Source: Burkholderiaceae bacterium
Lineage (GTDB): Bacteria > Pseudomonadota > Gammaproteobacteria > Burkholderiales > Burkholderiaceae_E
Length of the DNA: 64,000 bases
NCBI GenBank assembly: GCA_023384005.1
Contig: JAHDXY010000001.1
Span: 20,042-84,041 of the forward strand
Direction: 5' to 3'
Shown here piece by piece: positions 9,389 to 62,637 of this stretch. A program made the position numbers and the translations under genes. Every line of letters starts with the position of its first letter. Position 1 is the stretch's first letter. The notes beneath the pieces are model-generated. The model worked only from the letters and a program-made list of their open reading frames with translations, was not told where the DNA came from and made no database searches.

Positions 9389-9424
9389 CTCTTCCCTCCT
9401 GGACCGGATGAAATCTGTACTTTC

Positions 9425-9453: not shown

Positions 9454-9460
9454 TAATATT

Positions 9461-9474
9461 TGCAATTGATTGCA
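9461..9474. repeat. palindrome-family copy
   Basis: TGCAATTGATTGCA (1 mismatch). Between hairpin 9476-9509 and the promoter candidate. Confidence 0.85.
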
Positions 9475-9475
9475 C

Positions 9476-9509
9476 GAAAAAGGCCCCCGGCAGAGCTGCC
9501 AAGGGCCTT
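9476..9509 (-). terminator. candidate intrinsic terminator after 9539-10729
   Basis: Minus strand: AAGGCCC-(16-nt structured loop)-GGGCCTT followed by TTTCG. Lies just upstream of motif copy 9461. Confidence 0.4.
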
Positions 9510-9538
9510 CACGACAACTGCCCAAACGGACAGCCGGT

Positions 9539-10729: not shown

Positions 10730-10817
10730 TCGTTGACACCCTCCTGGTCTTGTGGGTCGGGATTTCCCGGCGAGACATGCCGGGCGGGCTTATGCTGAAA
10801 TACCAGTCTACCTTCTG

Positions 10818-10831
10818 TGCACTTAATTGCA
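10818..10831. repeat. palindrome-family copy
   Basis: TGCACTTAATTGCA (1 mismatch). Between stop 10844 and start 10729. Confidence 0.85.
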
Positions 10832-10843
10832 AATCTCTTTTCG

Positions 10844-11383
10844 TCAGTTTTTCCGCAAAGGCAACGAGCCTGCGATCTTCCGCATCTCCATCGTGATTCC
10901 AGGCAACCTGTTCGCCTGAGCCAACCCGAGAGCGGCCAGAGCGAAGGCATCGGCCGTGTTGTCCGACTTGCTCTCATGGCCCCAGCGCTTCAGCACGTGC
11001 ATCATCATCTGGGCCTTGGTTGTATTGCCCTTGCCGGTGGCGAACTTCTTCACCTCGGCTGCGCGAGGGTCGTACCAGGCAAACCCGTCGAGGTGCAGCA
11101 TGAAGCGCAGGAGACCGCCGACCTCGACAAGCGGGATGACGCTCGAAGCCTTCTTCATGTTGAGCGAGTAGCCCTCGATCATGATCTTGTCGGGCTTCCT
11201 GCCGTGGATCAGCTCCATGACGTGAGCGACGATGAATCTCGAACGCTCGACACCGGTCACCTTGTCGGGCTTGATCTCCTCTTCGTGCAGGAGATCGGGG
11301 CGCGGGGCACCATTCTCGCGCAGCAGCACCAGACCCGTGGCTGACGTCGACAGGTCGATACCCAGCGAGCTGATCGGGGTCAT
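10844..11383 (-). CDS. RuvC-like Holliday junction resolvase
   Basis: 179 aa. GIDLSTSATG, IEGYS and NTADAFALAALG match the RuvC-fold acidic motifs. Confidence 0.75.
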   Translation of the reverse strand: MTPISSLGIDLSTSATGLVLLRENGAPRPDLLHEEEIKPDKVTGVERSRFIVAHVMELIHGRKPDKIMIEGYSLNMKKASSVIPLVEVGGLLRFMLHLDGFAWYDPRAAEVKKFATGKGNTTKAQMMMHVLKRWGHESKSDNTADAFALAALGLAQANRLPGITMEMRKIAGSLPLRKN

Positions 11384-11601
11384 CCTTTGATACTCCCAAA
11401 CGTGATCTTGAACATCTCGTCCATCGTGTCGAGGTTGACGTCGATGTACGTGTGCAGCTCGTCGCGGAGCCTCGCTTTCTCAGCTTCGTCTCCAATGAAG
11501 CAGGCGGCGAGGTAACCGTTCGTGGCGGCCGTCACCTTGAACTCGAGGGATTTCATGCGGAGGGTCAGCTTCTTCACCCGATCGTCCTGGTCAGTCGCCA
11601 T
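11380..11601 (-). CDS. hypothetical protein
   Basis: 73-aa ORF with start/stop overlaps to both neighbours. Confidence 0.5.
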   Translation of the reverse strand: MATDQDDRVKKLTLRMKSLEFKVTAATNGYLAACFIGDEAEKARLRDELHTYIDVNLDTMDEMFKITFGSIKG

Positions 11602-12508
11602 CTTTCATCCAATCGTAGTTGGGAGGGTGGTCACCGGAAAAGCAGGCTGATTTCAGGGCGCACATCGAAGCGCGCTTTACCATGGCGGTGGGACAGATCC
11701 CGCAAGGCATGCCGACCTTGCCCTCCCTGAAGTCCTTGATCGCCTTCGCCCGCCTCGTGATGTCGTCGGTCTGGCTATCGTCCCGCTTGATCTCGAATTC
11801 CTTGAAGGGGCTGAATTGCTCGGTCAGGCCCCACTTCTTCAACTCGAGATCCTGGCAGCCGAAGCCGCCTTTGCTGACGTAGAGGACCGTCGCGACCTCT
11901 GTAGAGACCATGTTGGACCAGCTGTGATCGCTCTCTGCGATAAGGCGGAGGTAGAGGTTGGTCCGCCACCGATGCTCCGCAAGGGGGGCTTTGAGGGCTT
12001 TGAACTCGTCCTTGTCGATGGTTTTGAGCTCGATCGGACGCAGCTTCGTCTCGCCCACGGCCACCAGCATGTCGACGCCGCAGCTTGCGCCATTAACTGC
12101 ACTGACGAACCTGACTTCCTTCGGGTCGAACCGGCTGACACCGCATTGCTGGCATTTCAGCGGGCGGGTCTGAAACTCGTGCAGGGTGCCACAGGCAATG
12201 CACTTCCAGTGGCACACCGCCTTGCCCATGTCCGCAAACCAATTGACGACGTTCCACTCCAGATCGCGCCCCATCTGAAAGGTGACTGCGCTCGAGGTCG
12301 TCAGCCATTCGTCCTTCGACTTGATACCGGTGACGTCGTGCAGGGCATACATACGCGGGCACAGTCCCTCGGGCTTGGTCAGACTGGACGCATGGATCGT
12401 CTTCAGGGAGCGAGCCTTGTCATAACCGGACAAATGCCGGTGCAGCAGATACTTCACGCTCCGCTGCGGCATGTACTCCTTTGCTTTCTTGAGGAAGCTG
12501 ATTGCCAT
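11591..12508 (-). CDS. Cas4/RecB-like PD-(D/E)XK exonuclease
   Basis: 305 aa. N-terminal Cys (GLCPRMYAL), DMLVAVGE...IELKT (D..ExK) and a C-terminal Cys cluster CGICPTAMVKRASMCALKSAC. Confidence 0.7.
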   Translation of the reverse strand: MAISFLKKAKEYMPQRSVKYLLHRHLSGYDKARSLKTIHASSLTKPEGLCPRMYALHDVTGIKSKDEWLTTSSAVTFQMGRDLEWNVVNWFADMGKAVCHWKCIACGTLHEFQTRPLKCQQCGVSRFDPKEVRFVSAVNGASCGVDMLVAVGETKLRPIELKTIDKDEFKALKAPLAEHRWRTNLYLRLIAESDHSWSNMVSTEVATVLYVSKGGFGCQDLELKKWGLTEQFSPFKEFEIKRDDSQTDDITRRAKAIKDFREGKVGMPCGICPTAMVKRASMCALKSACFSGDHPPNYDWMKDGD

Positions 12509-12883
12509 CTACCAACCCTTGACTTTCGAGAAAAACCAATCGTTCAGGCTGGAGAGGACCTCCTTGCCAGTTTTCGACTCGATCAGGATCGTCATCGAAA
12601 GGTCGAACTCAATTGCCTCGTAACTGTAGCTTGTATTCTGGGTCAAGTTCTTGATCATGATGCCTTGGGCTGTCAGCGCCTCAAGTGCGAGCTTGACCGG
12701 AATATCCTTCGGCTCGGGAAGTGGTGGCGGTCCAGAATCTATGACGTCAATACAGGCTGTATCGGATATCAGCCCCAGCAATGCATTCTTATCGAGCGGG
12801 ATATCGCTAATCGCAAATTGACCTGGGGGATGGTGGCCTTCGATTTTTACGGGTGGATTCTTGACGAGCTTGAGCCATTTCAT
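12509..12883 (-). CDS. hypothetical protein (lower-GC gene)
   Basis: ORF track 12509..12916. The ATG at 12883 overlaps the methyltransferase stop (ATGA). Noticeably AT-richer than its neighbours. Confidence 0.5.
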   Translation of the reverse strand: MKWLKLVKNPPVKIEGHHPPGQFAISDIPLDKNALLGLISDTACIDVIDSGPPPLPEPKDIPVKLALEALTAQGIMIKNLTQNTSYSYEAIEFDLSMTILIESKTGKEVLSSLNDWFFSKVKGW

Positions 12884-13602
12884 GTCTGCACCGCCACATA
12901 CTTGCTGCCGTCCCACACCTTCTCGAATTTCACCGCTTCCGCGGGAGTTGGTTGGTCACCCGGAGAACCATCCGGCTTGGTGGATCCGTACAAGTACGTG
13001 ACGAAGGCGCTCTCGTTCTGAGGGTCTGATGCCCAATCCCAGACGAACCAGCTGTAGTTATGCCGGGGACCGCTATCGCCCTTCGATTTCTCGATCCACC
13101 GGGGGCGCTTGGTCAGCACATACTTGTCGGAGAACGGGTAGCCACCGAACAGATCGCGGCGGCCATTAGCGCAGTCGAATTCATTGCGCAGGAGCATGAT
13201 GACCTGGCCGTTGACAGGCTTCATGATCTCCAGAGCGCGGCGGACGAACTTCTCGGCCGTGATGGCGGGCACGCCCTCGACGCCTTCGATGTCGTATGGC
13301 GGGTTCGTCATGATCACGCGGACGCGGGGGTCGACCTCCTCGATCGAGAGGAAGTCCACCACACCTTGCATCTTCTCGTAGCCGTAATCCTTGATGTCGG
13401 TGGATAGAACGTTGAAGCCATGCTCCAGCAGCACGTCGCTGATCCATCCCGCACCACAAGCTGACTCCCAGATCACGTCGTCGTACCCGAGACCAGAAAG
13501 TGGCGTCGGCACGGCCAACAGCCACTCCGTCACCCACTTCTCGGTCCAGTACGCGTCGAGCTCCTTGCGCGCGTAGCCGCTCTCTCCGACGATCGTGTTC
13601 AA
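12880..13602 (-). CDS. N6-adenine DNA methyltransferase
   Basis: ORF track 12880..13644. SAM motif WESACGAGW and catalytic TNPPY. The TTG at 13602 overlaps the TGA of the upstream nuclease and follows AAGGAG. Confidence 0.8.
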   Translation of the reverse strand: MNTIVGESGYARKELDAYWTEKWVTEWLLAVPTPLSGLGYDDVIWESACGAGWISDVLLEHGFNVLSTDIKDYGYEKMQGVVDFLSIEEVDPRVRVIMTNPPYDIEGVEGVPAITAEKFVRRALEIMKPVNGQVIMLLRNEFDCANGRRDLFGGYPFSDKYVLTKRPRWIEKSKGDSGPRHNYSWFVWDWASDPQNESAFVTYLYGSTKPDGSPGDQPTPAEAVKFEKVWDGSKYVAVQT

Positions 13603-13955
13603 GGGAGCATCTCCTTGAACTTGTGGAGAGGCACCATCACCCATTCACCATCGAGGAGCGGGGTGCCGTCCGGCTTGACGAACGACACGGACAGAGCAGG
13701 CATCTTGCCTTCGGAGCGGGCCTCCTTGCTGATCTTGGCAAGCCAGTCGAGCTTCACCGCCATGCTGACCTGGGTCGTACTCTTGGCCTCGAGCAGGACA
13801 GTGCCGAGGTCCATATCGCCTTTCGCGCCCTCCATGGCACCCGATGCCGGCCGGGGCCTGGTGGCGAGCTGATGGGCGAGACGCCTCTCCGACTTTCTGC
13901 CGGACTTGCCGATGCGGTGCTGCGTGCGGCGCTTGACCCACGGGTTCTCAATCAT
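13599..13955 (-). CDS. small PD-(D/E)XK-type nuclease (possible junction resolvase)
   Basis: 118 aa. GDMDLGTVLLEAKST gives a D..ExK arrangement; basic N-terminus. Confidence 0.5.
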   Translation of the reverse strand: MIENPWVKRRTQHRIGKSGRKSERRLAHQLATRPRPASGAMEGAKGDMDLGTVLLEAKSTTQVSMAVKLDWLAKISKEARSEGKMPALSVSFVKPDGTPLLDGEWVMVPLHKFKEMLP

Positions 13956-15072
13956 GTGGCGACCCGCCTTCCTCGATCAGCTCTCCCTCCTTCATCAGGC
14001 GCTCGATGATGGCCTGCCGGATTTCGTTGCCGAACTTCTCGTCGGCGTAGAACTTGTCCTTGAACTCCTGCTGCGTGTCGTAGTGGTCACCGACGACGGT
14101 CCAGCCCTTGCCCTTCTCAGCCTTTTCGAACATGCCAAAGGTCTTGAGGTATTCCGCCACCGTGCCGACGTCATCGGACTGGCCGACCGTGAAGCCATCG
14201 TGCGGGTGCGTGACCATCGTGAACTTGCCGGAAGCAGAGAGGATCGGCACCTTCCACTTGTTCACGACGAAGGCCGTCTCCTTCCGCACCGGCATGACCG
14301 ACGACACCTTGTTGTCGATGATGTTCTTGCCGTAGACGCGGAGGCGGATGGCAGCCTGATAGTTCGGAGCATTGCCGCCCGGAGTCGTCTCCGGGTTGCC
14401 GAACATGACGCCGATCTTGTGCCTGATCTGGTTGACGTAGAACAGCGTCGGGAAGCGGCCCGCCTTTTCGGCCGCGCCCAGCGCCCTGGTGGTCTTGCGC
14501 ACGAGCTTCCCGGTGACGAGACCTGTGCCGCCCACATTCGCCTTCTCTGCGCTGCTATCGCTCTCCTGCGTGGTAACGAGCGCAGCGAGGCTGTCGATCA
14601 CAACGATTCCGCAGTCGTCAGTGTAAATCAGGCTCTCGGCCATATCGACGAGCTGCTCGGCATAGTCCGGGCGAATGACGATCAGCTTGGCAGTATCGAC
14701 GCCCATCTTCTCGGCCCAGCCAGGGTCGAAGCTGTTCTCCACGTCGAAGAACACATTCGTCTTGTCGGGCCAGAGCATCTGATGCTTGGCGATGGCGAGC
14801 AGGACGATGTTCGTCTTGCCCGAACTCTCAGGCCCGTAAATGATCGAACACTTCCCTCGCGGGAAGCCGCCGGCAAGAGCCAGGTCGAGCTCGAACATTC
14901 CGGTCGGGATACGGTCGGCATTGGCCAGTTGCCCACCGAATGAGCCGATGCTCTCCCCATACTCCTTCTGGAATCCAGCCAGGAGGTCCGCGGCGGACGT
15001 TGAAGCCGTCTTTGCTTTCTTAAGGCTGACTACCACATAACCCCCGTTGCCTACGCGGCGATCGTTGAACAC
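13948..15072 (-). CDS. RecA-family recombinase
   Basis: 374 aa. Walker A IIYGPESSGKTN and Walker B VVIDSLAALV. An in-frame GTG near 15036 with GGGGG upstream may be the true start. Confidence 0.8.
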   Translation of the reverse strand: MFNDRRVGNGGYVVVSLKKAKTASTSAADLLAGFQKEYGESIGSFGGQLANADRIPTGMFELDLALAGGFPRGKCSIIYGPESSGKTNIVLLAIAKHQMLWPDKTNVFFDVENSFDPGWAEKMGVDTAKLIVIRPDYAEQLVDMAESLIYTDDCGIVVIDSLAALVTTQESDSSAEKANVGGTGLVTGKLVRKTTRALGAAEKAGRFPTLFYVNQIRHKIGVMFGNPETTPGGNAPNYQAAIRLRVYGKNIIDNKVSSVMPVRKETAFVVNKWKVPILSASGKFTMVTHPHDGFTVGQSDDVGTVAEYLKTFGMFEKAEKGKGWTVVGDHYDTQQEFKDKFYADEKFGNEIRQAIIERLMKEGELIEEGGSPHD

Positions 15073-15083
15073 AGCACCACTTG

Positions 15084-15097
15084 TGCAGTTAATTTCA
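15084..15097. repeat. palindrome-family copy
   Basis: TGCAGTTAATTTCA (2 mismatches). Overlaps the stop of 15095-15412. Confidence 0.7.
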
Positions 15098-15412
15098 CTC
15101 CGACTGCAGCTCTTCGATCATGCTCTGCAGCTTCGTGTCGACCCATTCCTTCGAGTAGTCGAACACACTATCGATCTCGGAGTGCTGGCATGGCACCTTC
15201 AGGGAGATGCCGATCTTCGCGGACTGGTAGTTGCCGAGGTTGTGCGTGTAGCTCATGTCCACGCCGACTTCGCACCAGGGTCCGGAATGAGCCTTGGCGG
15301 CAGGTATATCGACCTTATCCTCGGTGGTCTCCTCGGCCACCACGGTGCCCTTGTCCTTGACCTGCATCATGGTCGATGCGGTGCCTGTCTTCTTCGCGAT
15401 CTTGAGAGCCAT
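15095..15412 (-). CDS. hypothetical acidic protein
   Basis: 105-aa ORF in an operon context. Confidence 0.55.
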   Translation of the reverse strand: MALKIAKKTGTASTMMQVKDKGTVVAEETTEDKVDIPAAKAHSGPWCEVGVDMSYTHNLGNYQSAKIGISLKVPCQHSEIDSVFDYSKEWVDTKLQSMIEELQSE

Positions 15413-15425
15413 TGATTTCTCCTAG

Positions 15426-16796
15426 CTAGTTCATCTCTTTGAGTTCACATCCGATTGACTTGTACCATTTTAGCCGAGAACCGGCGTAACCGGAAAAGAC
15501 CGGGCTGTCGTGGTCCTGCACGTCCATGACGACGGGCGTGCCTTTGTCAGGATACTCGCGCCGGATACGCCCTACGGGCTGCGTTACGTTCGCCCTCGGC
15601 ATTGCAAGAAGACAGGTGTCGATCCAGTCGATCGAGGTCCCTTCTCCCATCATCGTGTAAGTCGTAAACAGGATCGGCTTCACTTTCTCCCGCTCGCGCG
15701 CCTCTCTCTCGGCCTTCCCCTGAGCGCCGATGTAGAAGCCCATCTTGCGCCCTGAGATGCCGAACGTCTGATGGCAGGCCCGGTGCATCGCCCGCAGATG
15801 ATCATGGAGCGTCGAGAACACGACGAGCTGCCGGTTCTTCTCATAGGCGGCGTAGATCAGATCGGCGAGCAGATGGTTCCTGGCCGGATCGGCGGCGATG
15901 ATCTTCTCCAGGTGCGCCGTCTTACCGGGCTCGTGCGGCAGCCGTACCACACGGCGCTTTCCGCTCTCGGGATCAGAACGCAGCACGCGCGGGCATTCCC
16001 ATGCCGACCGAAAGAGCAGCACTTTCGGGACCATGAGCTGCGCTTCGGTCTTGGCGCGGATCGGGCCGATGTGCGCGAGCACCAGGAGCTCCTTGCCGTC
16101 AGAGCGCTCGGGCGTGGCGGACAGGCCAAGGCGCAGCTTCGCCGGAAACATGGTGACGACGTTGGAGAACTGGTCTGCCGGCACACGGTGGCACTCGTCG
16201 AAGATCACCAGGCCGAAGTCCTGGGCGATCCAGTCGGGATACTTGCCGTCCTTCGACAGCGAATGGATCATGGCAACGACGAACTTCGTCCCCACGACCT
16301 CGCACTTGTCGCCCCGGATCTCGCCGACCTCGTGCGGCTTGAGGCCGAGGAACTTGATGGCACCGTCGATCCACTGCTTGTAGATGTCATCCTTGGTCGT
16401 GATGACGATCGTCTTACGCCCCACTACGTAGGCGGCGTGATAGCCAAGGACCGTCTTCCCCCATCCGGTATAGGCACTGACGATGCCGGACAGCCCCTGC
16501 TTGAGAAACGAGACCGTCTCGTCGAACAGCTTGACCTGATGCGGGCGAGGCGTGGGATCATTCGGGTATTGTACGACCTCGCCATCCACCCGGTCATCGA
16601 CCGCGCCGACAGGGCACAAACCTCGAGGCAGGTGAATGAGACGCTTTTCATCGTCGACACTGTGCAGCAGCACTTCCTCACCGAAGCGCGACGTGAAGCG
16701 GTACTTGCTCTCCAAGCTCGGCTTGAACGCGTAAGTGGCCACCGCGTCAGTGCGGAGCGGTATGTCGTGCCTGATCAGCTCAGACAGAATGGCCAT
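15426..16796 (-). CDS. SF2 (DEAD/DEAH-like) helicase
   Basis: ORF track 15426..16925. Start taken at MAILSEL (16796). Motifs AYTGWGKT (motif I), IFDECH (motif II) and SATP. Confidence 0.8.
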   Translation of the reverse strand: MAILSELIRHDIPLRTDAVATYAFKPSLESKYRFTSRFGEEVLLHSVDDEKRLIHLPRGLCPVGAVDDRVDGEVVQYPNDPTPRPHQVKLFDETVSFLKQGLSGIVSAYTGWGKTVLGYHAAYVVGRKTIVITTKDDIYKQWIDGAIKFLGLKPHEVGEIRGDKCEVVGTKFVVAMIHSLSKDGKYPDWIAQDFGLVIFDECHRVPADQFSNVVTMFPAKLRLGLSATPERSDGKELLVLAHIGPIRAKTEAQLMVPKVLLFRSAWECPRVLRSDPESGKRRVVRLPHEPGKTAHLEKIIAADPARNHLLADLIYAAYEKNRQLVVFSTLHDHLRAMHRACHQTFGISGRKMGFYIGAQGKAEREAREREKVKPILFTTYTMMGEGTSIDWIDTCLLAMPRANVTQPVGRIRREYPDKGTPVVMDVQDHDSPVFSGYAGSRLKWYKSIGCELKEMN

Positions 16797-41654: not shown

Positions 41655-41668
41655 TGCAATTAATTGCA
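41655..41668. repeat. palindrome-family copy, perfect
   Basis: TGCAATTAATTGCA. 1 nt after stop 41670 and 61 nt before the ATG at 41593. Confidence 0.9.
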
Positions 41669-44558: not shown

Positions 44559-44572
44559 TGCAATTAATTGCA
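44559..44572. repeat. palindrome-family copy, perfect
   Basis: TGCAATTAATTGCA. 61 nt before the ATG at 44497. Confidence 0.9.
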
Positions 44573-46955: not shown

Positions 46956-46969
46956 TGCAATTAATTGCA
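46956..46969. repeat. palindrome-family copy, perfect
   Basis: ATGCAATTAATTGCAT (16-bp palindrome). 8 nt after the capsid stop, then a hairpin and T-run. Confidence 0.9.
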
Positions 46970-51453: not shown

Positions 51454-53328
51454 TTAATGGGCGTGGTGGTGGCCGTGGTGGTAGTCGCCCTGCATCACGG
51501 CGATGGTGCAGCCCATCAGCTCGCCAAGCCCTTCATGATCATGCGACGGGTCTACGAACTGGAGCGTGGCACACGCCTTCTGGAACTCCTTCCGTCCGTG
51601 GTCATCGAGCGTTGCAATCAATTGCACGTTTCTGCTCAGATCGGTGAAGTTGCGCTCCCGCAAGGCGATCAGGGTATCCTGGGCGAGAGCCAGCACCCCC
51701 TGAGTTGCCCCTTTGTGGATCTTCTGCGCCTTGGACGGTGTCGTCGGCTCCGTCGGGGTGCTTTCTGTATCGCCCGGAGCCTGGCCGCCCTTGTTCCCTT
51801 GAGCAAGCGGAACGACGTTGCCGTTCAAATCCACCGTCATCGTAGCTTCAGGTACTTCCTCGGAGACCTTGATGTTCGTTCCGCAGGCTTCGTTGATCTC
51901 GTAGAGGATGTCTTCCATTTCGACACGATTGGTGCTGATCGCCAATTCGATGCCCTGGAGCTTGAGTTGTGTATCCTCGATCGTAAGAGGCTTCGAGGCG
52001 AGCTTGTACTCGCGGTAGCCCATCGCTGCCAGGAGCTTCATCGTGATGACTTCATCGAACTCGTCACGCTCTGGCTTGAAGATCTGGGCTTCGGCCACGT
52101 TGTAGGACACGTAGGCCGTCGCGAACGAGTAATCGTCAGCCTTTCCGACGAAGATCGGGGGCAGCCGGAACGCGCGTCGAACTCGCTGCTCACACTTGTC
52201 GTCGTATTTCTCGAACATGGAGTCGTTCGTGCGTTCGCCGCCGAAGCGCTCCACCGTGACTCGAGCCTGGGTCGGGTTGTCCATCGAGCCACCTGTCGGC
52301 TCGACCTCCAGGATCTGGACGCGGTTCTTCGAGGCAGCGGTTCCGAGGCCCACCTTCTCCTCGAGAGCCTTGCGGGTCTCCGTCTGCAGCATTCCGCCCT
52401 GCAGTAGGATCAGCACGGGCGGGACGCCACCATTGTCGAAGAACTCCATGTTGAACTCCTCTGCCTTGCGGGAGCCCAGCACGGAGGGCAGCTGACTGAT
52501 CCAACGAGGCACGCCGTAGGGCGTATGCGCGTCGGGCAGGCATCTGAAGTGTATGATCTCGGTCGCACGGTCCTTCGCCGGCAGCCTCATACCTTTGGGT
52601 GCCCACACCGCCGTCGTCTTGTGCAGGTCCCTCTCGACGCCGAAGTCCTTGAAATAAACGAGGCTGACACCGTTCACGAGCTGGCAATAGCGGCGCTGCC
52701 GCTCCATGACCGTGATCTTCACCTCTTTGCCTCTCCGGCGAATGATCTTCTCGACCGGAATGGCATCGTCGAGCTTGACCAGCCGCATCATCTTTGCATC
52801 GACGGGCCGGATGAAGACGACCTCGTCCTGGGCATTGCGCAGAACCTCGAGGTAGGCGTTACCTGTACGCTCCAGATCACGGCGCAGCTTCTGACGGATC
52901 GTGACGAAGGATTCACCGGGCCAAGGCTCGTCGAAGAAGTCCCGGAGCTGCTCGATGTTCTTATCGTCCGCAGCGTCCTCTACCTCCTCATCCTCGCTCG
53001 TGAAGTCGTAGCCGGTCCCGTCGATATTGGTGACCATCGCCTCGATACAGGGCGAGAGCGCGTTGTTCTCCTGGGAAAGGCGGTCGAGCGTACGCAAGCT
53101 GTAGGGCGGCTCCAGGATGCCCTGGTCGCGCTGCGCGCCGAGATAGAGATCCTGGTACTCGTCCTCCGGCTCGAAGGCGTTGCCTCGAACCACATTCTCA
53201 GGAGCGTCGATCCCCTGCCGTCGTAGAAACTTCTGAACAGGCTCTTTGCCGGACCCGGCCGAAACCAGTCGGTACACCTGAGCGGTCGGCTTGCCCGAAT
53301 TCTCGGATTCGTCGACTCCATCCGCCAT
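51454..53328 (-). CDS. portal protein
   Basis: 624 aa. ILEPPYSLRTLDRLSQENNALSPCIEAMVTNIDGTGY resembles PBSX-type portals. Position also fits. Confidence 0.85.
   Translation of the reverse strand: MADGVDESENSGKPTAQVYRLVSAGSGKEPVQKFLRRQGIDAPENVVRGNAFEPEDEYQDLYLGAQRDQGILEPPYSLRTLDRLSQENNALSPCIEAMVTNIDGTGYDFTSEDEEVEDAADDKNIEQLRDFFDEPWPGESFVTIRQKLRRDLERTGNAYLEVLRNAQDEVVFIRPVDAKMMRLVKLDDAIPVEKIIRRRGKEVKITVMERQRRYCQLVNGVSLVYFKDFGVERDLHKTTAVWAPKGMRLPAKDRATEIIHFRCLPDAHTPYGVPRWISQLPSVLGSRKAEEFNMEFFDNGGVPPVLILLQGGMLQTETRKALEEKVGLGTAASKNRVQILEVEPTGGSMDNPTQARVTVERFGGERTNDSMFEKYDDKCEQRVRRAFRLPPIFVGKADDYSFATAYVSYNVAEAQIFKPERDEFDEVITMKLLAAMGYREYKLASKPLTIEDTQLKLQGIELAISTNRVEMEDILYEINEACGTNIKVSEEVPEATMTVDLNGNVVPLAQGNKGGQAPGDTESTPTEPTTPSKAQKIHKGATQGVLALAQDTLIALRERNFTDLSRNVQLIATLDDHGRKEFQKACATLQFVDPSHDHEGLGELMGCTIAVMQGDYHHGHHHAH
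51613..51626. repeat. palindrome-family copy (intragenic)
   Basis: TGCAATCAATTGCA (1 mismatch). Inside the portal CDS near its C-terminus (VQLIAT). Confidence 0.75.
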
Positions 53329-53368: not shown

Positions 53369-53382
53369 TGCAATTAATTGCA
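53369..53382. repeat. palindrome-family copy, perfect
   Basis: TGCAATTAATTGCA. 8 nt after the polymerase stop and 40 nt before the portal ATG. Confidence 0.9.
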
Positions 53383-53390: not shown

Positions 53391-55784
53391 CTACGCGACG
53401 AGCTTCAGCTTCTTGAGTTCTGCGAGGTTCAGCCCGGCTTCCGCGTCCGCAGGGAATCGCAGCTGCGGCTTCCAGCCCACCTCGTGTAGGGGGAGATTTG
53501 ACATAATCTCTTGCGCCCGACCAGCCCACAGGGCTGCGTCTTGTTCCGGCACGTAGGCGATCAGGGCGTCGTGGATCATACCCACCACTTCGATTTCCCC
53601 GTTCGGGTAGGAGGCATCGATCAGGGCAATGGCCCACAGCATCATGTCCGACAGGCACGACTGGATCGGGCTGTTGATGGCCTGGCGCTCCGCTTTCGAG
53701 CGGATGGCCCGATCCCAGCTGCGGATCATCGGCAGGTGCCGGATGCGGCCGAGCGGCGAGCGGACCATCTCGGAGAACCGGACGATCTCACGCTGCTTCT
53801 CGTGGTAATCTGTCAGGCCGCTGTACAGCGTGAAGAAGTCGTTTCTTATCTTCTCGGCCTCCGCATAGCTGAGCTTCAGGCCATAATTCGCCCAGGCGTA
53901 AGCCATGAAGCCTTCGACACCCATGCCGTAGAGCAGGCCGAAGTTGCCCGCCTTCGCCTGCTGGCGCAGGTCCTCGAACATCTTGGCGAACTTGGCATCC
54001 TCGGTTTCCTTCCACGAGACGAACTCGTCGTAGGGCACCCCGCCGAGCTGAGCCCCGGTCACCGCATGCAGGTCCAGACCCTGCTCGTAGGCGGCGATCA
54101 TATTCTTCTCGTTCGCCACGCAGGCGACCACGCGGAGCTCCCCCTGACTGTAGTCGAGGGAGATCACGACCTTGCCGGGCGGGGCCGGGAAACAGGCCCT
54201 GATCTTCTTCGCCCACTTCGTCTTCTTCGGAAGGATCTGGAACGCCGGGTCCTTGGCCGACAGACGTCCGGTGACGGTGCCAGACTGGTCGTCCTCCTCG
54301 TCGTACAACCCGCCGTGAAAGAGCATGTATGTCGGATGCAGCCGGCCGTCAGGGCGCAAGTGATTGAGGAAGCCTACGATGAACGTCGACAGCGTCTTGG
54401 ACGCCGTGTCCATTTCGGTCAGGGCTTCGACCATGGCCATGGCTTCCGGCACATCAGCAAACTGGAGCAGATGGGATTTGGCCATCGAGGGTTCCCCCGT
54501 TTTGGCCGTGAGCTCTCTTGGTTTCAGGCTTAGACCGTGGGGGGTGAAGAAGTATTCCTTGAGAATTGAGGGCAGTAGAGGGCTTTTCCCGGCCTTTAGC
54601 TGGCTCTCGATCCGCTCCCGGTACTTGATGCGCATCTTGTTCGGGAGAAGGCTCATCGCCTTGTCCTGGCTCTCCTGGATGACGCCCCGAACCTCATCGG
54701 CCAGCTGCTCGTATTTCTCCTTGTCGACGAGGACGCCCCGCCGCTCGATCTTCTCGAACGCGCGAGCGGCCGGATGCAGGATCTTGATGTAGAAGGTCGC
54801 CAGCTTCGGGTCCTCGGCGAGCTCGTCGCGCATGATGTCAGCCACCTGCTGGCAGGCGTCCGTGTCGCCACCCGCGTAAGTCAGAAAATCTTCGGGCGGG
54901 ATCTTCTCCATCGCGCTCTTGTCGTAAGTCGCGTTCAGGTAGTCGTCATAGCCGCCGATCGGCGTGAAAATCTTGGCATGCAGGTTCAGGCTGTTCGAGC
55001 GGTTCTCGTTCAGGAGCGTGCCGACCAGCATGGTGTCGAACTTGAAGTTCGTGCACTCGATACCCCACTTCACCGCAATCCAGATCAGGTCGTATTTCAG
55101 GTTCGCGCCGCGCAGCTTGACCTTGGGAGAGGTCAGGAGCCACTTGATCTGGTCGAACAAAGGGACGGAGGGATTGAAGGGGACGGGCGGCTTGTGCGGG
55201 CCTAGATAGAGCACTTCCGCAGTATTGGGGCGGGCAGTGAAGCTGATCGAGACAATGTCGCGATCGGGATACCACGGATAGAACGTCATCGTCTCCGTAT
55301 CCATCGACACGTCGACGGGCTTGCCGGTCTTGGCGTAGCGTTCCTCGATCCAGTCGATCATCGGCTGGTAGTCATTGACGTAGCGATAGTCTCCGATCTC
55401 CGGCTCCAGTGATCCGGTGCGCATCAACCGGACGGCCAGGCGGACGTCCCAATCAATGATCTCCGACTTGTCCGGTTCACTGCTCGTCAACGTAGGGTCG
55501 AACGTGACGAGGTAGTAGCCACCGTGGCTGCTCTTGATCGGCTTCTCTCGCAGAGACGTGACGGTTCTGTTCTTCGGTGCGAGGCCAGCGCGGCGCAGCA
55601 CGTCCAGGGGCTTGTTGCCGCAAACGAGAACGATTTCACCCGCTTCAGCTTCCGGGGGCGGGTTGTCGTCAATCAGCGGCAGGAATTGATGAGGCGGGAT
55701 GTCAGGCCGGTGGTTCTTGAGCGATACCCCGAACGTCTTCTTGATCAACGGCGCATCGGCCGTGGTCCAAATCTTCAAGGTCAT
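53391..55784 (-). CDS. family A DNA polymerase with 3'-5' exonuclease domain and N-terminal extension
   Basis: 797 aa. Exo I MDTET; TVTGRLSAKDPAFQILPK; motif A LDYSQGELRV; motif B RQQAKAGNFGLLYGMG; motif C MIHDA. Confidence 0.9.
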   Translation of the reverse strand: MTLKIWTTADAPLIKKTFGVSLKNHRPDIPPHQFLPLIDDNPPPEAEAGEIVLVCGNKPLDVLRRAGLAPKNRTVTSLREKPIKSSHGGYYLVTFDPTLTSSEPDKSEIIDWDVRLAVRLMRTGSLEPEIGDYRYVNDYQPMIDWIEERYAKTGKPVDVSMDTETMTFYPWYPDRDIVSISFTARPNTAEVLYLGPHKPPVPFNPSVPLFDQIKWLLTSPKVKLRGANLKYDLIWIAVKWGIECTNFKFDTMLVGTLLNENRSNSLNLHAKIFTPIGGYDDYLNATYDKSAMEKIPPEDFLTYAGGDTDACQQVADIMRDELAEDPKLATFYIKILHPAARAFEKIERRGVLVDKEKYEQLADEVRGVIQESQDKAMSLLPNKMRIKYRERIESQLKAGKSPLLPSILKEYFFTPHGLSLKPRELTAKTGEPSMAKSHLLQFADVPEAMAMVEALTEMDTASKTLSTFIVGFLNHLRPDGRLHPTYMLFHGGLYDEEDDQSGTVTGRLSAKDPAFQILPKKTKWAKKIRACFPAPPGKVVISLDYSQGELRVVACVANEKNMIAAYEQGLDLHAVTGAQLGGVPYDEFVSWKETEDAKFAKMFEDLRQQAKAGNFGLLYGMGVEGFMAYAWANYGLKLSYAEAEKIRNDFFTLYSGLTDYHEKQREIVRFSEMVRSPLGRIRHLPMIRSWDRAIRSKAERQAINSPIQSCLSDMMLWAIALIDASYPNGEIEVVGMIHDALIAYVPEQDAALWAGRAQEIMSNLPLHEVGWKPQLRFPADAEAGLNLAELKKLKLVA

Positions 55785-57321: not shown

Positions 57322-57335
57322 TGCACTTAATTGCA
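57322..57335. repeat. palindrome-family copy
   Basis: TGCACTTAATTGCA (1 mismatch). The central TAA is the stop of 57327-57611; a promoter candidate follows. Confidence 0.85.
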
Positions 57336-57611
57336 CTGACACGACCGTAGGGCAAGCTGTCTGCACTCAATCCGTCGTCGCTCGGATCGCATAAAGCTCT
57401 CCTGCAAGGTTCGCGGCGGATCGCACTCGAACAGGTACGTATGCAGGGCAAATTCAATCCCATCGTAGGCGTCGGCGTTGCGGCGGCCGTACCAAGCCTC
57501 CAGACAACACTCTTTGCAGAGCTTGTAGCGCTCATCGTCCGTCCGCTTATTGGGATAGAACTCCTCAAGCGGTTTTGACTTTGCGCAGCGACCGCACGTC
57601 TTCATCCCCAT
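57327..57611 (-). CDS. zinc-ribbon protein
   Basis: 94 aa with CGRC...CKEC pairs. Ends Cys-Asn-TAA inside a motif copy. Confidence 0.5.
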   Translation of the reverse strand: MGMKTCGRCAKSKPLEEFYPNKRTDDERYKLCKECCLEAWYGRRNADAYDGIEFALHTYLFECDPPRTLQESFMRSERRRIECRQLALRSCQCN

Positions 57612-58303
57612 ATACTCCCCTCATTCGGTAGAGGATAGAACACCTTGGTTCGTTTGCTCGAGGATGAGCTCAACCCACCGGTGACACTCGTATACGACTC
57701 CTTCGTCGGCTTGGAGCTGCTGATCCCGAAGTGCGCCATCAGGAACTTGACCTGTTCGGAACTTTCCACGGCCTTCTGGCAATAGTGCTGGCGGACATAC
57801 GATATTGCGTCCTTCTCCCCGAACTCGGATACGAGGGCAGCGAGGAAGGTTCCCGTCCGCCCATGGCCGCCAATGCACCCGCAGTGCACCTTCATCCCGG
57901 ATTCGAGCTGCTTGCGCGTCCACGCGATCAGCTTCTTGAACTCCTCCGGCTTGTCCGGGGCTCGCATATCCGTGATCTTGAAGAAAACCTCCGTGCCCTT
58001 CTTCCAGGGCCAGCTCCTCTCCGAAAAGCGCATTCCCGAGTCGAAGCCGATGTAGACGTCGGCATCGAGCACAACGGGGGACGAGCAGGAGCCTCCATAG
58101 ATCACCAGATCGGTGCCAGGCAACTTCAGGGGAGGGTGCTTCTCATAGCAGCGAACGTACGAGCTCCCCGTCGACTTGTAGCTGGAGGAGCCATAATCAT
58201 AATCAGGCTTCGAACTCCCAAACGTCTTAGTGTTCTTCTGATTGCCCCTGACCTGGGCGCGGTCACCGTGAATCACGTCGTTCAAGTTCTTTCTTTTGGA
58301 CAT
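57602..58303 (-). CDS. dual-specificity (CX5R) phosphatase-like protein, paralog 2
   Basis: ORF track 57602..58504. ATG at 58303 follows GGAGGGAG. ITDMRAP (Asp loop), HCGCIGGHGRTG (P-loop) and AVESSEQVKF (Q motif). Confidence 0.7.
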   Translation of the reverse strand: MSKRKNLNDVIHGDRAQVRGNQKNTKTFGSSKPDYDYGSSSYKSTGSSYVRCYEKHPPLKLPGTDLVIYGGSCSSPVVLDADVYIGFDSGMRFSERSWPWKKGTEVFFKITDMRAPDKPEEFKKLIAWTRKQLESGMKVHCGCIGGHGRTGTFLAALVSEFGEKDAISYVRQHYCQKAVESSEQVKFLMAHFGISSSKPTKESYTSVTGGLSSSSSKRTKVFYPLPNEGSIWG

Positions 58304-58323: not shown

Positions 58324-59418
58324 TTACGCGGCTTCGCTGCGGATAATTTGGATCTTCTTCACTTCCAGGCCCGGCATGACCTGGAACCAATTCTTGGCGT
58401 GCTCCTCGGCGGCCTTCTTGGCGGCCTCCTCCTGGGCTTTCTTCTTCGCCTCGGCGGCTTTCAAAGCAGCCTGGGCAGCCGGCGACATGCCGTGCTTGCT
58501 CCATTGCTGCTGCTTATCCTGCTGGTACTTCTTGACAGAGCCCAGCGCCTCGACGACCTCCCAATCCACATAGTCGCCAATCTTATCCGGGAAGCGGTCC
58601 TTGACTTGCTGCATCCAAGCAACTAGCTCCGGGTTGATGTATTTCTTGACGATGCCGTCAAATAATACGGCCTGCGGTATCTGTCCCGAGCGCTGGATAT
58701 CGAGTATTCTTATAATCGCAGCATGGTTATACATGCCGTAAAACAGCGATTTGTTAAATATGGGGCCATTATTGTGGCTCAAAGTCCACACTGTATCAAG
58801 CATCATCTCCGCTGAATACTCTCCCTTAACAAACCGGACCAAGCAATCGGCAATGGAGCCCCACGCGGGTCCGCCGTAGCCGCCAGCCCATTTCGAATTG
58901 TAGAACTGCCACTGCATGCACTCGCAATAGGCCCCGATCGAAGCGTCGGGCGGGTTCTTCAGGAACTCCTGGTGGATGCTGGCTTCACCCCCCTTGATCA
59001 TCTTGAAGAAGTCGGCCACCGGCGTCCCGAACTTCTCCACCATCTTCGCATAGTTGGCCGACAAAGACTTATTGTGCCGGGCCTCGCGGGTGCAGATCAG
59101 CAGGAGATAGTAGAACGCCCTAATGGCCCGTGGAGCGAGCTCCTTGTGATACGCCTCAACGAACTCCAGCTCCCAATCATTGAGCGGCTCCAGAGGATCA
59201 CGCTGGCTGCCAATTAGCGCCATCCCGTGGTTCATCCCATAGAACCAAAGGGCTTGCGTCTCCGGAACGCTGTAGCCGTCGCTGGCGTTGTTGGCTTGCT
59301 GGTAGATAGCCACCCGATCCGCGACGCTCTTGCAAAGCACCGCGCTCATATCGCGCTTGGCGCACAGCACCCGCGACGAGTGATAAGCCAACGTGTCCTG
59401 GGGATCGGTCAAGGCCAT
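58324..59418 (-). CDS. conserved-looking hypothetical protein with Lys/Ala/Glu-rich C-terminal tail
   Basis: 364 aa. Blocks CTREARHNK and WAGGYGGPAWGS. Tail AAQAALKAAEAKKKAQEEAAKKAAEEHAK. No family recognised. Confidence 0.6.
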   Translation of the reverse strand: MALTDPQDTLAYHSSRVLCAKRDMSAVLCKSVADRVAIYQQANNASDGYSVPETQALWFYGMNHGMALIGSQRDPLEPLNDWELEFVEAYHKELAPRAIRAFYYLLLICTREARHNKSLSANYAKMVEKFGTPVADFFKMIKGGEASIHQEFLKNPPDASIGAYCECMQWQFYNSKWAGGYGGPAWGSIADCLVRFVKGEYSAEMMLDTVWTLSHNNGPIFNKSLFYGMYNHAAIIRILDIQRSGQIPQAVLFDGIVKKYINPELVAWMQQVKDRFPDKIGDYVDWEVVEALGSVKKYQQDKQQQWSKHGMSPAAQAALKAAEAKKKAQEEAAKKAAEEHAKNWFQVMPGLEVKKIQIIRSEAA

Positions 59419-59502: not shown

Positions 59503-59516
59503 TGCATTTAATTGCA
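59503..59516. repeat. palindrome-family copy
   Basis: TGCATTTAATTGCA (1 mismatch). 6 nt after stop 59523. A half-site TGCAATCAAT lies at 59475. Confidence 0.85.
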
Positions 59517-59522: not shown

Positions 59523-60035
59523 TCAGCTGTAAATCATCCTGAGAAACGGCACCCGCTGCGTCCAGGCGAAGAGATGCAGCCACTTCTGCAGTTCTCGGGC
59601 ATCGAAACTCTCCACGAAGCGGGCTTGAGGCTTCGTCTCGACCGCCCGAGGATGGTAATACTCGCGCACATAATCGACCGGGTCGGTTACACCTGCGGTC
59701 TTCGCGAGCAGGGCAAGGAACAAGCCTGTGCGCCCCCATCCGCCCATGCAACCGACGTAGACGTCCCTGCCTCGGATCGCCGCCCGGAACGTATCCCGGA
59801 TCGCCATGTCCAACGCCAGCCGATCATTTGGAATGCTGAAGTCGTGGATCGGAACATGAGCATCGAAACCGCCCTCCGGGACGCGCTCGGCTCGCACGCA
59901 AACCCCGAACGCCTGATCCCGGCCGGGGAAGTTGTCGTAGGGTCCACCCGCGATCGACAAGGTGTAGAAGCCACCGCGCCAGCCCAGATCGAGCGGTAGG
60001 TAGCCATTCGGCTCGAGTTGATGTTGGGTATCCAT
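59523..60035 (-). CDS. dual-specificity (CX5R) phosphatase-like protein, paralog 1
   Basis: 170 aa. IHDFSIP (Asp loop), VGCMGGWGRTG (P-loop) and AVETKPQARF (Q motif). Confidence 0.75.
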   Translation of the reverse strand: MDTQHQLEPNGYLPLDLGWRGGFYTLSIAGGPYDNFPGRDQAFGVCVRAERVPEGGFDAHVPIHDFSIPNDRLALDMAIRDTFRAAIRGRDVYVGCMGGWGRTGLFLALLAKTAGVTDPVDYVREYYHPRAVETKPQARFVESFDARELQKWLHLFAWTQRVPFLRMIYS

Positions 60036-60076: not shown

Positions 60077-60301
60077 TCAGGATAGTTTGATGCGGCTCAC
60101 GTCAAGAACTCGGCCGTCCTCGATCAGCAGAATGAAATCGTTGAACCTCCAGTTGCCTCGCTCGTGGGTGATGGGTGCAGACCGTCGCGCCATCCTGGCT
60201 ATCCGCTTGACCGTGTCGCCGTACAGGCCCGCGTAGCGAGCCTTCTGCACAGCCTCTTCCGTCACCTGGAACTCCCGGAACCTCGTCCCTTTGCCACTCA
60301 T
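60077..60301 (-). CDS. hypothetical protein
   Basis: 74-aa ORF with ATGA-type overlap to the upstream gene. Confidence 0.45.
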   Translation of the reverse strand: MSGKGTRFREFQVTEEAVQKARYAGLYGDTVKRIARMARRSAPITHERGNWRFNDFILLIEDGRVLDVSRIKLS

Positions 60302-60585
60302 GGGCCACTCTTGCTCCGTTTTCGGTAACGATCTCCACGAAGGATTTCGATCTCTTGCGGCGCTTCGATCGCAATACGTATCGCCCCGTATTTGTAGAAG
60401 TCGCCGGCAGATACGAAAACGTCGTCCATGATCTCCTTCGCTTCCGTATCGGTTATCTCAATCTCCTTCTGCTCTCCGGCAAGCCGGACCCAGAACCTCG
60501 CACCGGATTCGATCCTCGTGATGACCACCTGGCGATCCTCCACCCAGAAGTCATCACTCTCCTTCATGCTCAGTACCAAAGGCAT
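60298..60585 (-). CDS. CsrA-like RNA-binding protein with internal insertion/duplication
   Basis: 95 aa. MPLVLSMKESDDFWVEDRQVVITRI and IRIAIEAPQEIEILRGDRY parallel E. coli CsrA [23 protein letters not shown] and VRIGVNAPKEVSVHREEIY. About 35 extra residues lie between them. Confidence 0.5.
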   Translation of the reverse strand: MPLVLSMKESDDFWVEDRQVVITRIESGARFWVRLAGEQKEIEITDTEAKEIMDDVFVSAGDFYKYGAIRIAIEAPQEIEILRGDRYRKRSKSGP

Positions 60586-60620: not shown

Positions 60621-62582
60621 TCAATCGGTGAGAACGGAGAAGGCTGCGTAGTCAGCCGGGACGATGACCGGGTCTTCGCTAGAGCCAGTCTCGTGGACCA
60701 CCTTCAACCCCTTCAGCTCCGGCATTTGTGACGCGCGGTCCAGCAGCACCGACACAAAGTTGTCGGGCTCCGTCCCGAAGGCATCGATCAGGTCCAGATC
60801 GGCATCCCGGCACAGGCTAAGCGGAGAACGAATGTCCAGGATCACGTGCTCCAGGCTGGGCAGCGCAGCCAACCCGTTCAGAACCGTCCCCAGCACTTCC
60901 TCAGACCCCCACCAGTAGGCGGCCTGGACCGCGTGCCGCCGATGATCCGCTCCGAGGTCTACGGGGGACGACTCATAAGCCTGCATCTTGTCCAGGCACC
61001 AGCCCACCACCTTCTTGACCTCGGGGCTGCCAGAGCTGTCGATCACCGGCACATCGATCTCGAACCAGACGTTCCCCGTGTTGCCGTCGATCGTAACCTT
61101 CTTGCACTTCTTGGCGGCTTCCATGTCGAGCGCAGTGCAGCCGACCACGCAGGTCTTGTCCATCGCTCGCGCGACTACGGCGGCGTGGCTGGTCGCCCCG
61201 CCTGTCTGGGTCAGGATGCCGATCGCCGCGTTCATGCCGGCGATGTCATCGGGCGTCGTTTCGTGCGTGACGAGGATGCAGGGCTCCATGCAATTAATTG
61301 CGTCGCCCGACGAAAACACCGGCTTCCCGGTCACCACGCCGGGGCTCGCCGGGAGCCCGACCACCTTCGGGTCCGCCTTGAACGACGGATCCAGCATCGG
61401 CCGGCGCACGGCCTTGAACTGCGCCTTAGTCAGCCTCTTGAGCGCCGTTTCCCGGTCAATCACATCTCCCCACACGAGGTCGATTGCGATCTTGAAGGCA
61501 GCCCGGGCCGAACGCTTGCCTACCCGGCTCTGCAGGATGAACAGCTGGCCCTGCTGCACGGTGAACTCCACATCCACCATGTCCTTGTACATATCCTCCA
61601 GTTTGTGGCAGGTCTGAATGATCTCGTCGGCCATCTTCGGCCACTCGCCACCGAGAGACTGCATCTCCTTGAGCGGGCGGGGCGTCCTGATCCCAGCCAC
61701 CACGTCCTCCCCCTGGGCGTTCTGCAGGAACTCGCCCATGATCGAGTCATTGCCTGTCGACGGGTCTCGCGTGAACAGCACGCCCGTCCCCGAGTCGTCG
61801 CCCATGTTGCCGAACACCATGGCCTGCACGTTCACGGCGGTGCCCATGCCCTCGTCGATCTTGTTCAGCTTGCGGTACTCGATTGCCCGAGGATTCATCC
61901 AGCTGTCGAACACCGCCCTGATCGCGGCGCGGAGCTGCTCCTGGGCATCGTTGTCGGGGAACGGGAAGCCCTTGTTCTCCTTGAACGCCTTCCGGTAACG
62001 AGCCACCAGCGAAGACAGGTCTATGAAATCGAGTTCCGTATCATCGACCTTCCCAAGCTCCTTCTTTAGCTTGGCCAGCTGGAACTCGAACACCGCGTGC
62101 GGGACGCCGTAGGCCGTGGAGCCCAGCATCTGGATCAGACGACGCTGGCTGTCCATTGCAGCCCGCTGACCGATGCGATCAGCCCACGCACCGAAGTTGT
62201 CCTCGGTCAGGCCGACATTCAGGATCGTGTCCATCATGCCGGGCATCGAGACCGGAGCGCCCGAGCGAACCGAGACGAGCGGCGTGTACCCGAACTGCTT
62301 GGTCAGCCACTGCATGCCCGCGAAGGCATCGCCCACCACGTCCTTGATGAACTCGTCGCGCTCCTTGCCTTCCAGCTGCATGTAAGCGAGACACAGGTCA
62401 GTCGGAATCGTGAAGCCGGGCGGGACGGGCATGCCGGCCTGGGCCATCATGACGAGAGCCGCGCCTTTGCCTCCCAGATGCTTCTTGGCGAGCTTCTGGT
62501 CAGTTTCTGTCCAATCACAATGACCGGCAGAGAACCTGTAGATCTTGCTTCCCACGTTACCCTCCATGGTTTCTGTGGACAC
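60621..62582 (-). CDS. pyruvate phosphate dikinase-like phosphotransferase lacking the PEP/pyruvate domain
   Basis: 653 aa. PPDK N-terminal ATP-grasp blocks (LGGKGAAL, PLVSVRSGAPVSMPGMMDTILNVGL, NAQGEDVVAGIRTP) and the phosphohistidine domain GGATSHAAVVARAMDKTCVVGC. These are followed by only about 150-170 unrelated residues. Confidence 0.85.
   Translation of the reverse strand: MSTETMEGNVGSKIYRFSAGHCDWTETDQKLAKKHLGGKGAALVMMAQAGMPVPPGFTIPTDLCLAYMQLEGKERDEFIKDVVGDAFAGMQWLTKQFGYTPLVSVRSGAPVSMPGMMDTILNVGLTEDNFGAWADRIGQRAAMDSQRRLIQMLGSTAYGVPHAVFEFQLAKLKKELGKVDDTELDFIDLSSLVARYRKAFKENKGFPFPDNDAQEQLRAAIRAVFDSWMNPRAIEYRKLNKIDEGMGTAVNVQAMVFGNMGDDSGTGVLFTRDPSTGNDSIMGEFLQNAQGEDVVAGIRTPRPLKEMQSLGGEWPKMADEIIQTCHKLEDMYKDMVDVEFTVQQGQLFILQSRVGKRSARAAFKIAIDLVWGDVIDRETALKRLTKAQFKAVRRPMLDPSFKADPKVVGLPASPGVVTGKPVFSSGDAINCMEPCILVTHETTPDDIAGMNAAIGILTQTGGATSHAAVVARAMDKTCVVGCTALDMEAAKKCKKVTIDGNTGNVWFEIDVPVIDSSGSPEVKKVVGWCLDKMQAYESSPVDLGADHRRHAVQAAYWWGSEEVLGTVLNGLAALPSLEHVILDIRSPLSLCRDADLDLIDAFGTEPDNFVSVLLDRASQMPELKGLKVVHETGSSEDPVIVPADYAAFSVLTD
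61289..61302. repeat. palindrome-family copy (intragenic)
   Basis: TGCAATTAATTGCG (1 mismatch). Inside the PPDK-like CDS (DAINC). Confidence 0.75.
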
Positions 62583-62623: not shown

Positions 62624-62637
62624 TGCAATTAATTTCG
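62624..62637. repeat. palindrome-family copy
   Basis: TGCAATTAATTTCG (2 mismatches). The central TAA is the stop of 62629-63138; a promoter candidate follows. Confidence 0.75.

Follow-up and report, generated by a model that had tools for sequence, protein, structure and literature searches.

Gene and Domain Organization

In a 64,000-nucleotide stretch of DNA from a Burkholderiaceae bacterium (GenBank assembly GCA_023384005.1, contig JAHDXY010000001.1, positions 20,042 to 84,041; the whole stretch is referred to as the window), the minus-strand open reading frame (ORF) at 60621–62582 encodes a homolog of pyruvate phosphate dikinase (PPDK) in which a short domain stands in the place of the phosphoenolpyruvate (PEP)/pyruvate TIM barrel. 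The protein is called the dikinase below; residue numbers refer to the 653-aa version of the ORF unless the 644-aa numbering is stated. The following parts were assigned:

60621–62582, minus strand: whole barrel-less PPDK-like dikinase ORF; 653 aa from GTG at 62582; stop codon 60621–60623.
61518–62507, minus strand: N-terminal ATP-grasp nucleotide-binding domain; approximately residues 26–355 (PF01326; alignment to maize and Flaveria PPDK).
61074–61517, minus strand: first linker and swivel phosphohistidine domain; residues 356–503 (PF00391 spans 433–503).
61185–61187, minus strand: codon of the catalytic His466 in GGATSH (residues 461–466); His457 in the 644-aa numbering.
60984–61073, minus strand: second PPDK-type linker helix region; residues 504–533 (TGNVW...VPVIDSS...VVGWCLDKM), still homologous to PPDK.
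60624–60983, minus strand: unique C-terminal α/β domain (the tail) in place of the TIM barrel; residues 534–653.

The GTG at 62582 is the earliest in-frame start; the GTG at 62555 (codon 10) has GGAGG a few bases upstream and, since this is a Shine–Dalgarno sequence and the window's own database protein (P0001) is 644 aa long, the true start is probably at 62555, which gives a protein of 644 aa.

PPDK-derived core: In Pfam searches PPDK_N (PF01326, 3.8e-46) and the PEP-utilizers mobile domain (PF00391, 8e-24, residues 433–503) were found; BLASTP against a genuine 881-aa PPDK (L004) gave 41% identity over residues 14–528 and no similarity beyond, as the original prediction of PPDK similarity through the swivel domain had it. 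Identity to true PPDKs was 41–47% across approximately 515 residues, and the best relatives of solved structure were plant and bacterial PPDKs (about 420 bits), aligned only over residues ~14–533. The ATP-grasp motifs of PPDK are all kept (GGKGA, VSVRSGAPVSMPGMMDT, NAQGEDVVAGIRTP and DVEFT...LQSR); these motif columns and the catalytic His are invariant in the homolog alignment (A3), and GG-x-TSHAAVVAR was found in about 114 of 120 homologs. The motif GGATSHAAVVARAMDKTCVVGC, quoted in the original prediction, is present in the ORF, and the catalytic residue that had been placed near position 466 is His466 of GGATSH, near-invariant in homologs. Judged by these alignments, every part of the core (the ATP-grasp domain, the two linkers and the phosphohistidine domain) is intact and evolves under tight constraint.

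The family is already known as PHROG 18609 and is routinely annotated as PPDK in phage genomes; the match to this 'kinase' profile (4.3e-156) covers only profile positions 15–514 of 685. Gp6 of Rhodobacter phage RcZahn covers 95% of the dikinase at 51% identity; the annotation 'pyruvate phosphate dikinase' is carried by this phage, by Rhizobium phage RHph_TM16, by Stenotrophomonas phages DLP_3 and DLP_5, and by approximately 34 Vibrio siphophages. In the literature on the characterised function of the phage homologs, genome descriptions only were found.

The C-Terminal Domain

Length and absence of the barrel: After His466 there are 187 residues in the dikinase vs approximately 420 in true PPDKs. 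The original prediction counted 150–170 residues without resemblance after the swivel domain; the absence of the barrel was borne out, and the count has to be reduced, about 30 of the ~150 residues (504–533) being the PPDK linker, with ~120 left as unique. The PEP-utilizers_C barrel (PF02896) was not found in the dikinase by Pfam; at E ≤ 10 the window tail gave nothing relevant and 46 aligned homologous tails gave no PF02896 match. The tail profile had no match below E = 0.3 among PDB sequences. The TIGR01828 equivalog cutoff was missed (559.5 bits vs 843.45; aligned model positions 4–525 of 865), and no stand-alone barrel ORF that could supply the missing part in trans was found within the window.

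Comparison with a barrel profile: A profile was built from 80 real PPDK C-domains from genomes and compared with the tail by hhalign. With the shared linker included, a probability of 96% was obtained that came entirely from the linker; with the linker removed, the probability was 0.14% and the score 12.5, and column-shuffled controls reached a higher score (23). By eye, HAVQAAYWWGSEEV...VILDIRSP looks like β1-α1-β2 of PPDK; this resemblance to a degraded barrel was dismissed because the score sinks below that of the shuffled controls once the linker is taken away. The likeness of 'LD-R-P--F-P' to PPDK 'RLLDPPLHEFLP', noted by eye and aligned by greedy hhalign extension, is anecdotal and likewise falls under the shuffled controls. 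Within the reach of sequence and profile methods, the tail is not a decayed PEP/pyruvate barrel, in agreement with the original prediction, which had named a degraded barrel and a missing catalytic His as the two outcomes that would speak against it.

Fold of the tail: AlphaFold2 (AF2; alignment of 46 sequences) gave the tail as a compact α/β domain (mean pLDDT 92.4; pTM 0.82). Foldseek with the tail against PDB and BFVD yielded no significant match (the best had E = 0.15 and a TM of about 0.3); the weak matches were mostly generic α/β and TIM proteins, and the barrel of PPDK itself was not among them. The profile and structure searches of the C-terminal region that had been proposed at the outset thus returned no Pfam, PDB-sequence or Foldseek match.

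Distribution and divergence: The short architecture, also proposed for a search in other phages, is widespread; more than 100 homolog clusters (50–68% identity, 98% coverage, 640–730 aa) keep it in full, with PF01326 and PF00391 as the only domains. An exhaustive HMMER search with the tail profile over 1.84 billion representatives returned 149 clusters only, nearly all of them proteins of 640–740 aa that match at the C-terminus, or fragments; because nearly nothing else was found, the tail domain appears to be confined, on profile evidence, to the barrel-less dikinase architecture. Two longer proteins, P0164 (1062 aa, tail 837–995) and P0172 (944 aa, tail 719–838), have the tail match at a greater distance from the N-terminus and may represent either fusions or the usual architecture with an extended N-terminus. 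The positions kept in the tail are WWG (557–559), LD (582–583), P587, D595, L598, FG (602–603) and a C-terminal PaDYAaF-vL; as motifs among the homologs these read WWG, LD-R-P, D--L--cFG, L-GL and vPaDYAaF-vL.

Divergence has been much more rapid in the tail than in the core, and the hidden Markov model (HMM) of the tail recognises only 26 loci; the tails of DLP3 and J26 (the Stenotrophomonas and Vibrio members) were not recognised by it. A broadened profile of 41 tails, compared with a DLP3-type cluster of 13 tails, gave a probability of 93% (E = 3e-7, 120 columns); no match to the barrel profile was obtained with either cluster. Positions common to both are the strand ending in ...lD and the start of the F-G helix. 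Because the cluster profiles match each other, the divergent tails are best taken as homologous forms of a single domain that evolves fast. The tail is, by its conservation and its confidently predicted fold, a real domain.

Remnant or genuine PPDK: A host PPDK that was captured, has lost its function and is decaying would account for the loss of the C-terminal domain, which is the sole point in its favor; it is hardly credible in view of the more than 100 clusters of one architecture with a near-invariant catalytic motif, the conserved and confidently folded tail, and a synteny kept from Vibrio phages to alphaproteobacterial phages. A genuine PPDK serving as an auxiliary metabolic gene was proposed in 2025 for the homolog of Vibrio phage J26, the C-terminus of which was described as a four-stranded 'TIM barrel topology' into which PEP was docked, by modelling and docking only (PMC12038007). 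The tail would then be a minimal PEP/pyruvate half-barrel. The GenBank annotations agree with this, and TIM-barrel proteins are over-represented among the weak Foldseek matches of the tail, although these have only E ≥ 0.15 and TM about 0.3; the reading is very improbable, given a tail of 120 aa vs a barrel of ~340 aa, the lack of any sequence or profile similarity to it, the absence of the PPDK barrel from the fold matches, the missed TIGR01828 cutoff, and true PPDK loci that lack the gene module described in the next section. Both the canonical PPDK function and the dead remnant are effectively excluded.

The Conserved Gene Module

Neighboring genes: The dikinase is the first gene of a co-directional module that lies between terminase and PolA and comprises a CsrA-like small protein, a first protein of the protein tyrosine phosphatase (PTP) fold, an all-α orphan protein and a second PTP-fold protein. 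The genes of the window following the dikinase are:

60298–60585, minus strand: small downstream ORF, 95 aa, weak partial similarity to CsrA; a CsrA-annotated gene lies at the same place in Vibrio phage J26.
59523–60035, minus strand: PTP-fold protein 1, 170 aa, similar to atypical dual-specificity phosphatases (DSPs); active-site loop CMGGWGRT.
58324–59418, minus strand: orphan all-α protein, 364 aa, PHROG 20946; downstream of the dikinase.
57602–58303, minus strand: PTP-fold protein 2, 233 aa from ATG at 58303; active-site loop CIGGHGRT.
53391–55784: PolA, next in the window gene order after PTP-fold protein 2.
51454–53328: portal, next in the window gene order after PolA.

A small Cys-rich ORF within the module (57327–57611, minus strand) contains CGRC...CKECC and has weak similarity to the Stc1 zinc finger.

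Gene order: The order terminase, small ORFs, dikinase, small ORFs, PTP-fold protein, PHROG 20946 protein of ~340–365 aa, second PTP-fold protein, PolA, portal was found in RcZahn, RHph_TM16, DLP_3, J26 and a Nitratireductor record, and the window matches it. In J26 one small ORF after the dikinase is annotated CsrA, and the place of the second PTP-fold protein is held by a 284-aa protein without CX5R; this protein (ORF102, L005 12055–12909) is annotated 'pyruvate decarboxylase', a doubtful annotation since it is far too short for a decarboxylase dependent on thiamine diphosphate. The Nitratireductor sp. OM-1 record (CP029208.1, positions 1–15431) has ParB, terminase, dikinase and PTP at the very start of a 3.98-Mb chromosome record; the module there may belong to a prophage or a phagemid or may stem from a join made in assembly, and DLP5 is reported as a phagemid.

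Census: Eighty IMG/VR loci were examined, the barrel-less ones being counted if at least 4.5 kb of downstream sequence was available (n = 52). In 52 of 52 barrel-less viral loci there was a PHROG 20946-like gene together with two or more CX5R ORFs, always downstream and on the same strand; at true full-length PPDK loci (barrel present, ~420 aa after the His) neither a PHROG 20946-like gene nor CX5R ORFs were found (0 of 10). The window has the same arrangement, the dikinase being followed on its own strand by the PHROG 20946-like gene and two CX5R PTP-fold genes. About 11 IMG/VR viral contigs encode a genuine full-length PPDK without the module; they are either real metabolic genes of viral contigs or cellular contamination. 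The published label 'PPDK auxiliary metabolic gene' is very probably wrong, because the tail is not the barrel and because linkage to the module sets these genes apart from true PPDK loci; the evidence thus contradicts the view, found in the records of dozens of phages and in one or more papers devoted to the gene, of a PPDK that would enhance the carbon metabolism of the host.

Orphan protein of 364 aa (PHROG 20946): There are 415 homologs of the protein; 46 of its residues are invariant, and polar ones are frequent among these (E53, N63, H64, R100, E112, R114, H115, D191, C192, E204 and D208 and, further, H215, N216, K223, D240 and R243). The AF2 model is a confident all-α fold (pLDDT 88.5), for which Foldseek found no PDB match; Pfam gave only a weak low-complexity match to DUF2992, and searches of PDB sequences, NCBIfam and PADLOC gave none. 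PHROG 20946 is an enzyme-like orphan family strictly linked to the dikinase.

PTP-fold and other module proteins: The two PTP-fold proteins are nearest to small atypical DSPs and archaeal PTPs (TkPTP, SsoPTP, DUSP23). PADLOC gave no matches on any of the module proteins, NCBIfam added nothing on the neighbors, and neither the tail nor the neighbors showed a recognisable domain for binding DNA or nucleotides. PHROG 17568 is labelled 'thymidylate synthase', as is gp141 of DLP_3 (L002 11560–12336); these proteins, with those of the window at 59523–60035 and 57602–58303, are of the CX5R PTP fold (CIGGHGRT), and the label looks like a propagated mis-annotation.

Palindromic Repeat and Promoter-Like Signals

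The motif copy that had been pointed out inside the gene at 61289 is there and differs at one position from TGCAATTAATTGCA, a perfect 14-bp palindrome rich in AT. With up to 2 mismatches allowed, the window contains 35 copies of this palindrome, where chance would give 0.04. The copies lie mostly in short intergenic gaps, ~45–85 nt upstream of minus-strand gene starts; examples are 41655–41668, 44559–44572, 46956–46969, 53369–53382 and 59503–59516, together with the two copies at the dikinase gene:

61289–61302, unstranded: intragenic palindrome copy, 1 mismatch; over dikinase codons A428–M432.
62624–62637, unstranded: palindrome copy, 2 mismatches; ~45–70 nt upstream of the dikinase start.

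The copy at 62624–62637 adjoins a promoter-like pair, TTGCGC-16 nt-TAGAAT, read by eye. The palindrome probably serves as an operator or promoter element of the phage.

Proposed Mechanism

With moderate confidence, the dikinase is regarded as a functional swivelling-histidine dikinase that was derived from PPDK and would no longer act on pyruvate/PEP. By the chemistry of PPDK and of VadK, a barrel-less mycobacterial protein described in the next section, the ATP-grasp domain would move the β,γ-pyrophosphoryl group of ATP onto His466 and the γ-phosphate would be handed to Pi or water; the phosphorylated His466 would then swing on the kept two-linker hinge toward the former position of the barrel, now held by the tail, and the tail would bind a non-pyruvate acceptor or dock a partner that bears the acceptor site. 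Candidate site residues are WWG557–559, D583 and D595, near predicted strand ends. The original prediction of a dikinase with a new acceptor was upheld as to architecture; as to the acceptor, it is plausible and preferred, and the tail may instead be a docking or oligomerisation domain. New biochemistry of phages, possibly tied to the restriction-resistant DNA of the lineage, could come to light with the identity of the acceptor; three widespread orphan families (the tail domain, PHROG 20946 and PHROG 17568) would then also have functions.

Several points weigh against this reading. The proposed pocket was derived from sequence and secondary structure only; the small number of invariant polar residues in the tail and its fast evolution also fit a docking or oligomerisation role; a kinase beside two phosphatases has no obvious logic as long as the substrates are not at hand; and the module loci all belong to one broad phage lineage that keeps the terminase...PolA-portal synteny, so that co-occurrence may in part reflect shared descent and not a coupling of functions.

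Phosphorelay or nucleic acid modification: His-to-Cys phosphotransfer occurs in the phosphotransferase system (PTS), and glucan water dikinase works with glucan phosphatases of the DSP type. With these precedents, the phosphoryl group of His466 might pass, in the manner of the PTS, to the active-site Cys of the PTP-fold proteins, or to DNA, RNA or a nucleotide precursor, as part of the DNA modification of the lineage. The obligate linkage to two CX5R proteins and an enzyme-like orphan next to PolA is consistent with such a route, as is the resistance of DLP3 genomic DNA to 15 of 15 restriction enzymes tested (PMC7326821). These arguments are purely circumstantial, however; the lack of a detected DNA- or nucleotide-binding domain in the tail or the neighbors speaks against the route, and glycosyltransferase, methyltransferase and ParB-like genes of these genomes could explain the restriction resistance, so it is considered unlikely. 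In its widest form the proposal would make the dikinase, the two Cys-phosphatase-fold proteins and the all-α orphan a previously undescribed ATP-driven phosphotransfer pathway, either a His-to-Cys relay or phosphorylation of nucleic acid or a nucleotide precursor, that underlies DNA modification or another part of host takeover in a widespread lineage of Proteobacteria siphophages of ~80–100 kb, the tail recognising the acceptor or partner; this is put forward as a speculation with a rather small chance of being correct.

Comparison with Known Systems

PPDK: With PPDK (EC 2.7.9.1; TIGR01828; PDB 1vbg, 1kbl) the dikinase shares the ATP-grasp domain, both linkers and the swivel domain with GG-x-TSHAAV; PPDK has in addition the ~340-aa PEP/pyruvate TIM barrel (PF02896), whereas the dikinase lacks the barrel together with its catalytic residues and has an unrelated α/β domain of 120 aa instead.

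Phage members of PHROG 18609: The phage proteins named PPDK (RcZahn gp6, RHph_TM16, DLP_3/DLP_5 and the Vibrio phages J26, SIO-2 and VHS1) have family and synteny in common with the window dikinase. Gp139 of Bacillus phage G is a 365-aa N-terminal fragment only, in a different context, and is uninformative.

Rifampin phosphotransferase, PEP synthase and glucan water dikinase: In these enzymes, as in the dikinase, an ATP-grasp domain and a swivel His feed a substrate-specific third domain, and the shared domain logic on which the original prediction drew stands. The likeness goes no further, since in rifampin phosphotransferase (Rph) and glucan water dikinase the His or the nucleotide domain is C-terminal, an order unlike that of the dikinase, and the third domain is unrelated; VadK is the nearer precedent. 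The dikinase scores far under the respective cutoffs (RIF_Ptrans_rph, 52 bits vs 999; PEP_synth, 100 vs 740); with PRK06241/NF041857 (rifampin phosphotransferase/PEP-synthase-like) 52–88 bits were obtained vs cutoffs of 883–999, only the swivel domain aligning, at the C-terminus of the models.

VadK: VadK (Rv1127c) of Mycobacterium tuberculosis is a 490-aa derivative of PPDK that lacks the barrel. In the presence of ATP/Mg2+ it autophosphorylates on the corresponding His; it is no PPDK and carries no PPDK flux, interacts with methylcitrate-cycle enzymes and is proposed to act on protein partners (PMC13400623). Both proteins are PPDK derivatives without the barrel, and VadK is the nearest characterised analogue of the dikinase. 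VadK ends after the His domain, with no C-terminal domain (PMC13400623), whereas the dikinase adds the conserved 120-aa domain after the linker; unlike the phage dikinase, VadK is actinobacterial and linked to methylcitrate-cycle genes. With the VadK-type model NF004531 the dikinase scored 447.1 bits, marginally under the cutoff of 456, and with the canonical PPDK model TIGR01828 559 bits; the VadK-type architecture, i.e., nucleotide-binding and His domains only in about 490–534 aa, is not that of the dikinase. Because the dikinase scores closer to canonical PPDK than to the VadK model, the barrel was probably lost in the phage line independently of VadK, as far as profile scores can tell.

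The analogy allows the dikinase to be a regulatory histidine kinase like VadK, autophosphorylated on His466 and acting on, or read by, phage or host protein partners, with the tail as a docking or dimerisation module that replaces the dimer interface of the barrel and has no site for a small-molecule acceptor. Apart from the behavior of VadK itself and the score just short of the NF004531 cutoff, the rapid evolution of the tail and its few invariant polar residues, typical of protein-protein interfaces, and the similarity of the neighbors to small DSPs of the protein-phosphatase type agree with this. VadK lacks any C-terminal domain, however, the phage core is nearer to canonical PPDK, which suggests an independent origin, and D583 and WWG, near predicted strand ends, would look more like a ligand site; a VadK-like role is given a clear minority of the probability. 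If the preferred reading is correct, i.e., a functional dikinase with an acceptor other than pyruvate/PEP, the phage protein would be the second, independent case after VadK in which the phosphoryl shuttle of PPDK is reused without its barrel, and a new third domain of orphan fold together with obligate partner genes would distinguish it from VadK.

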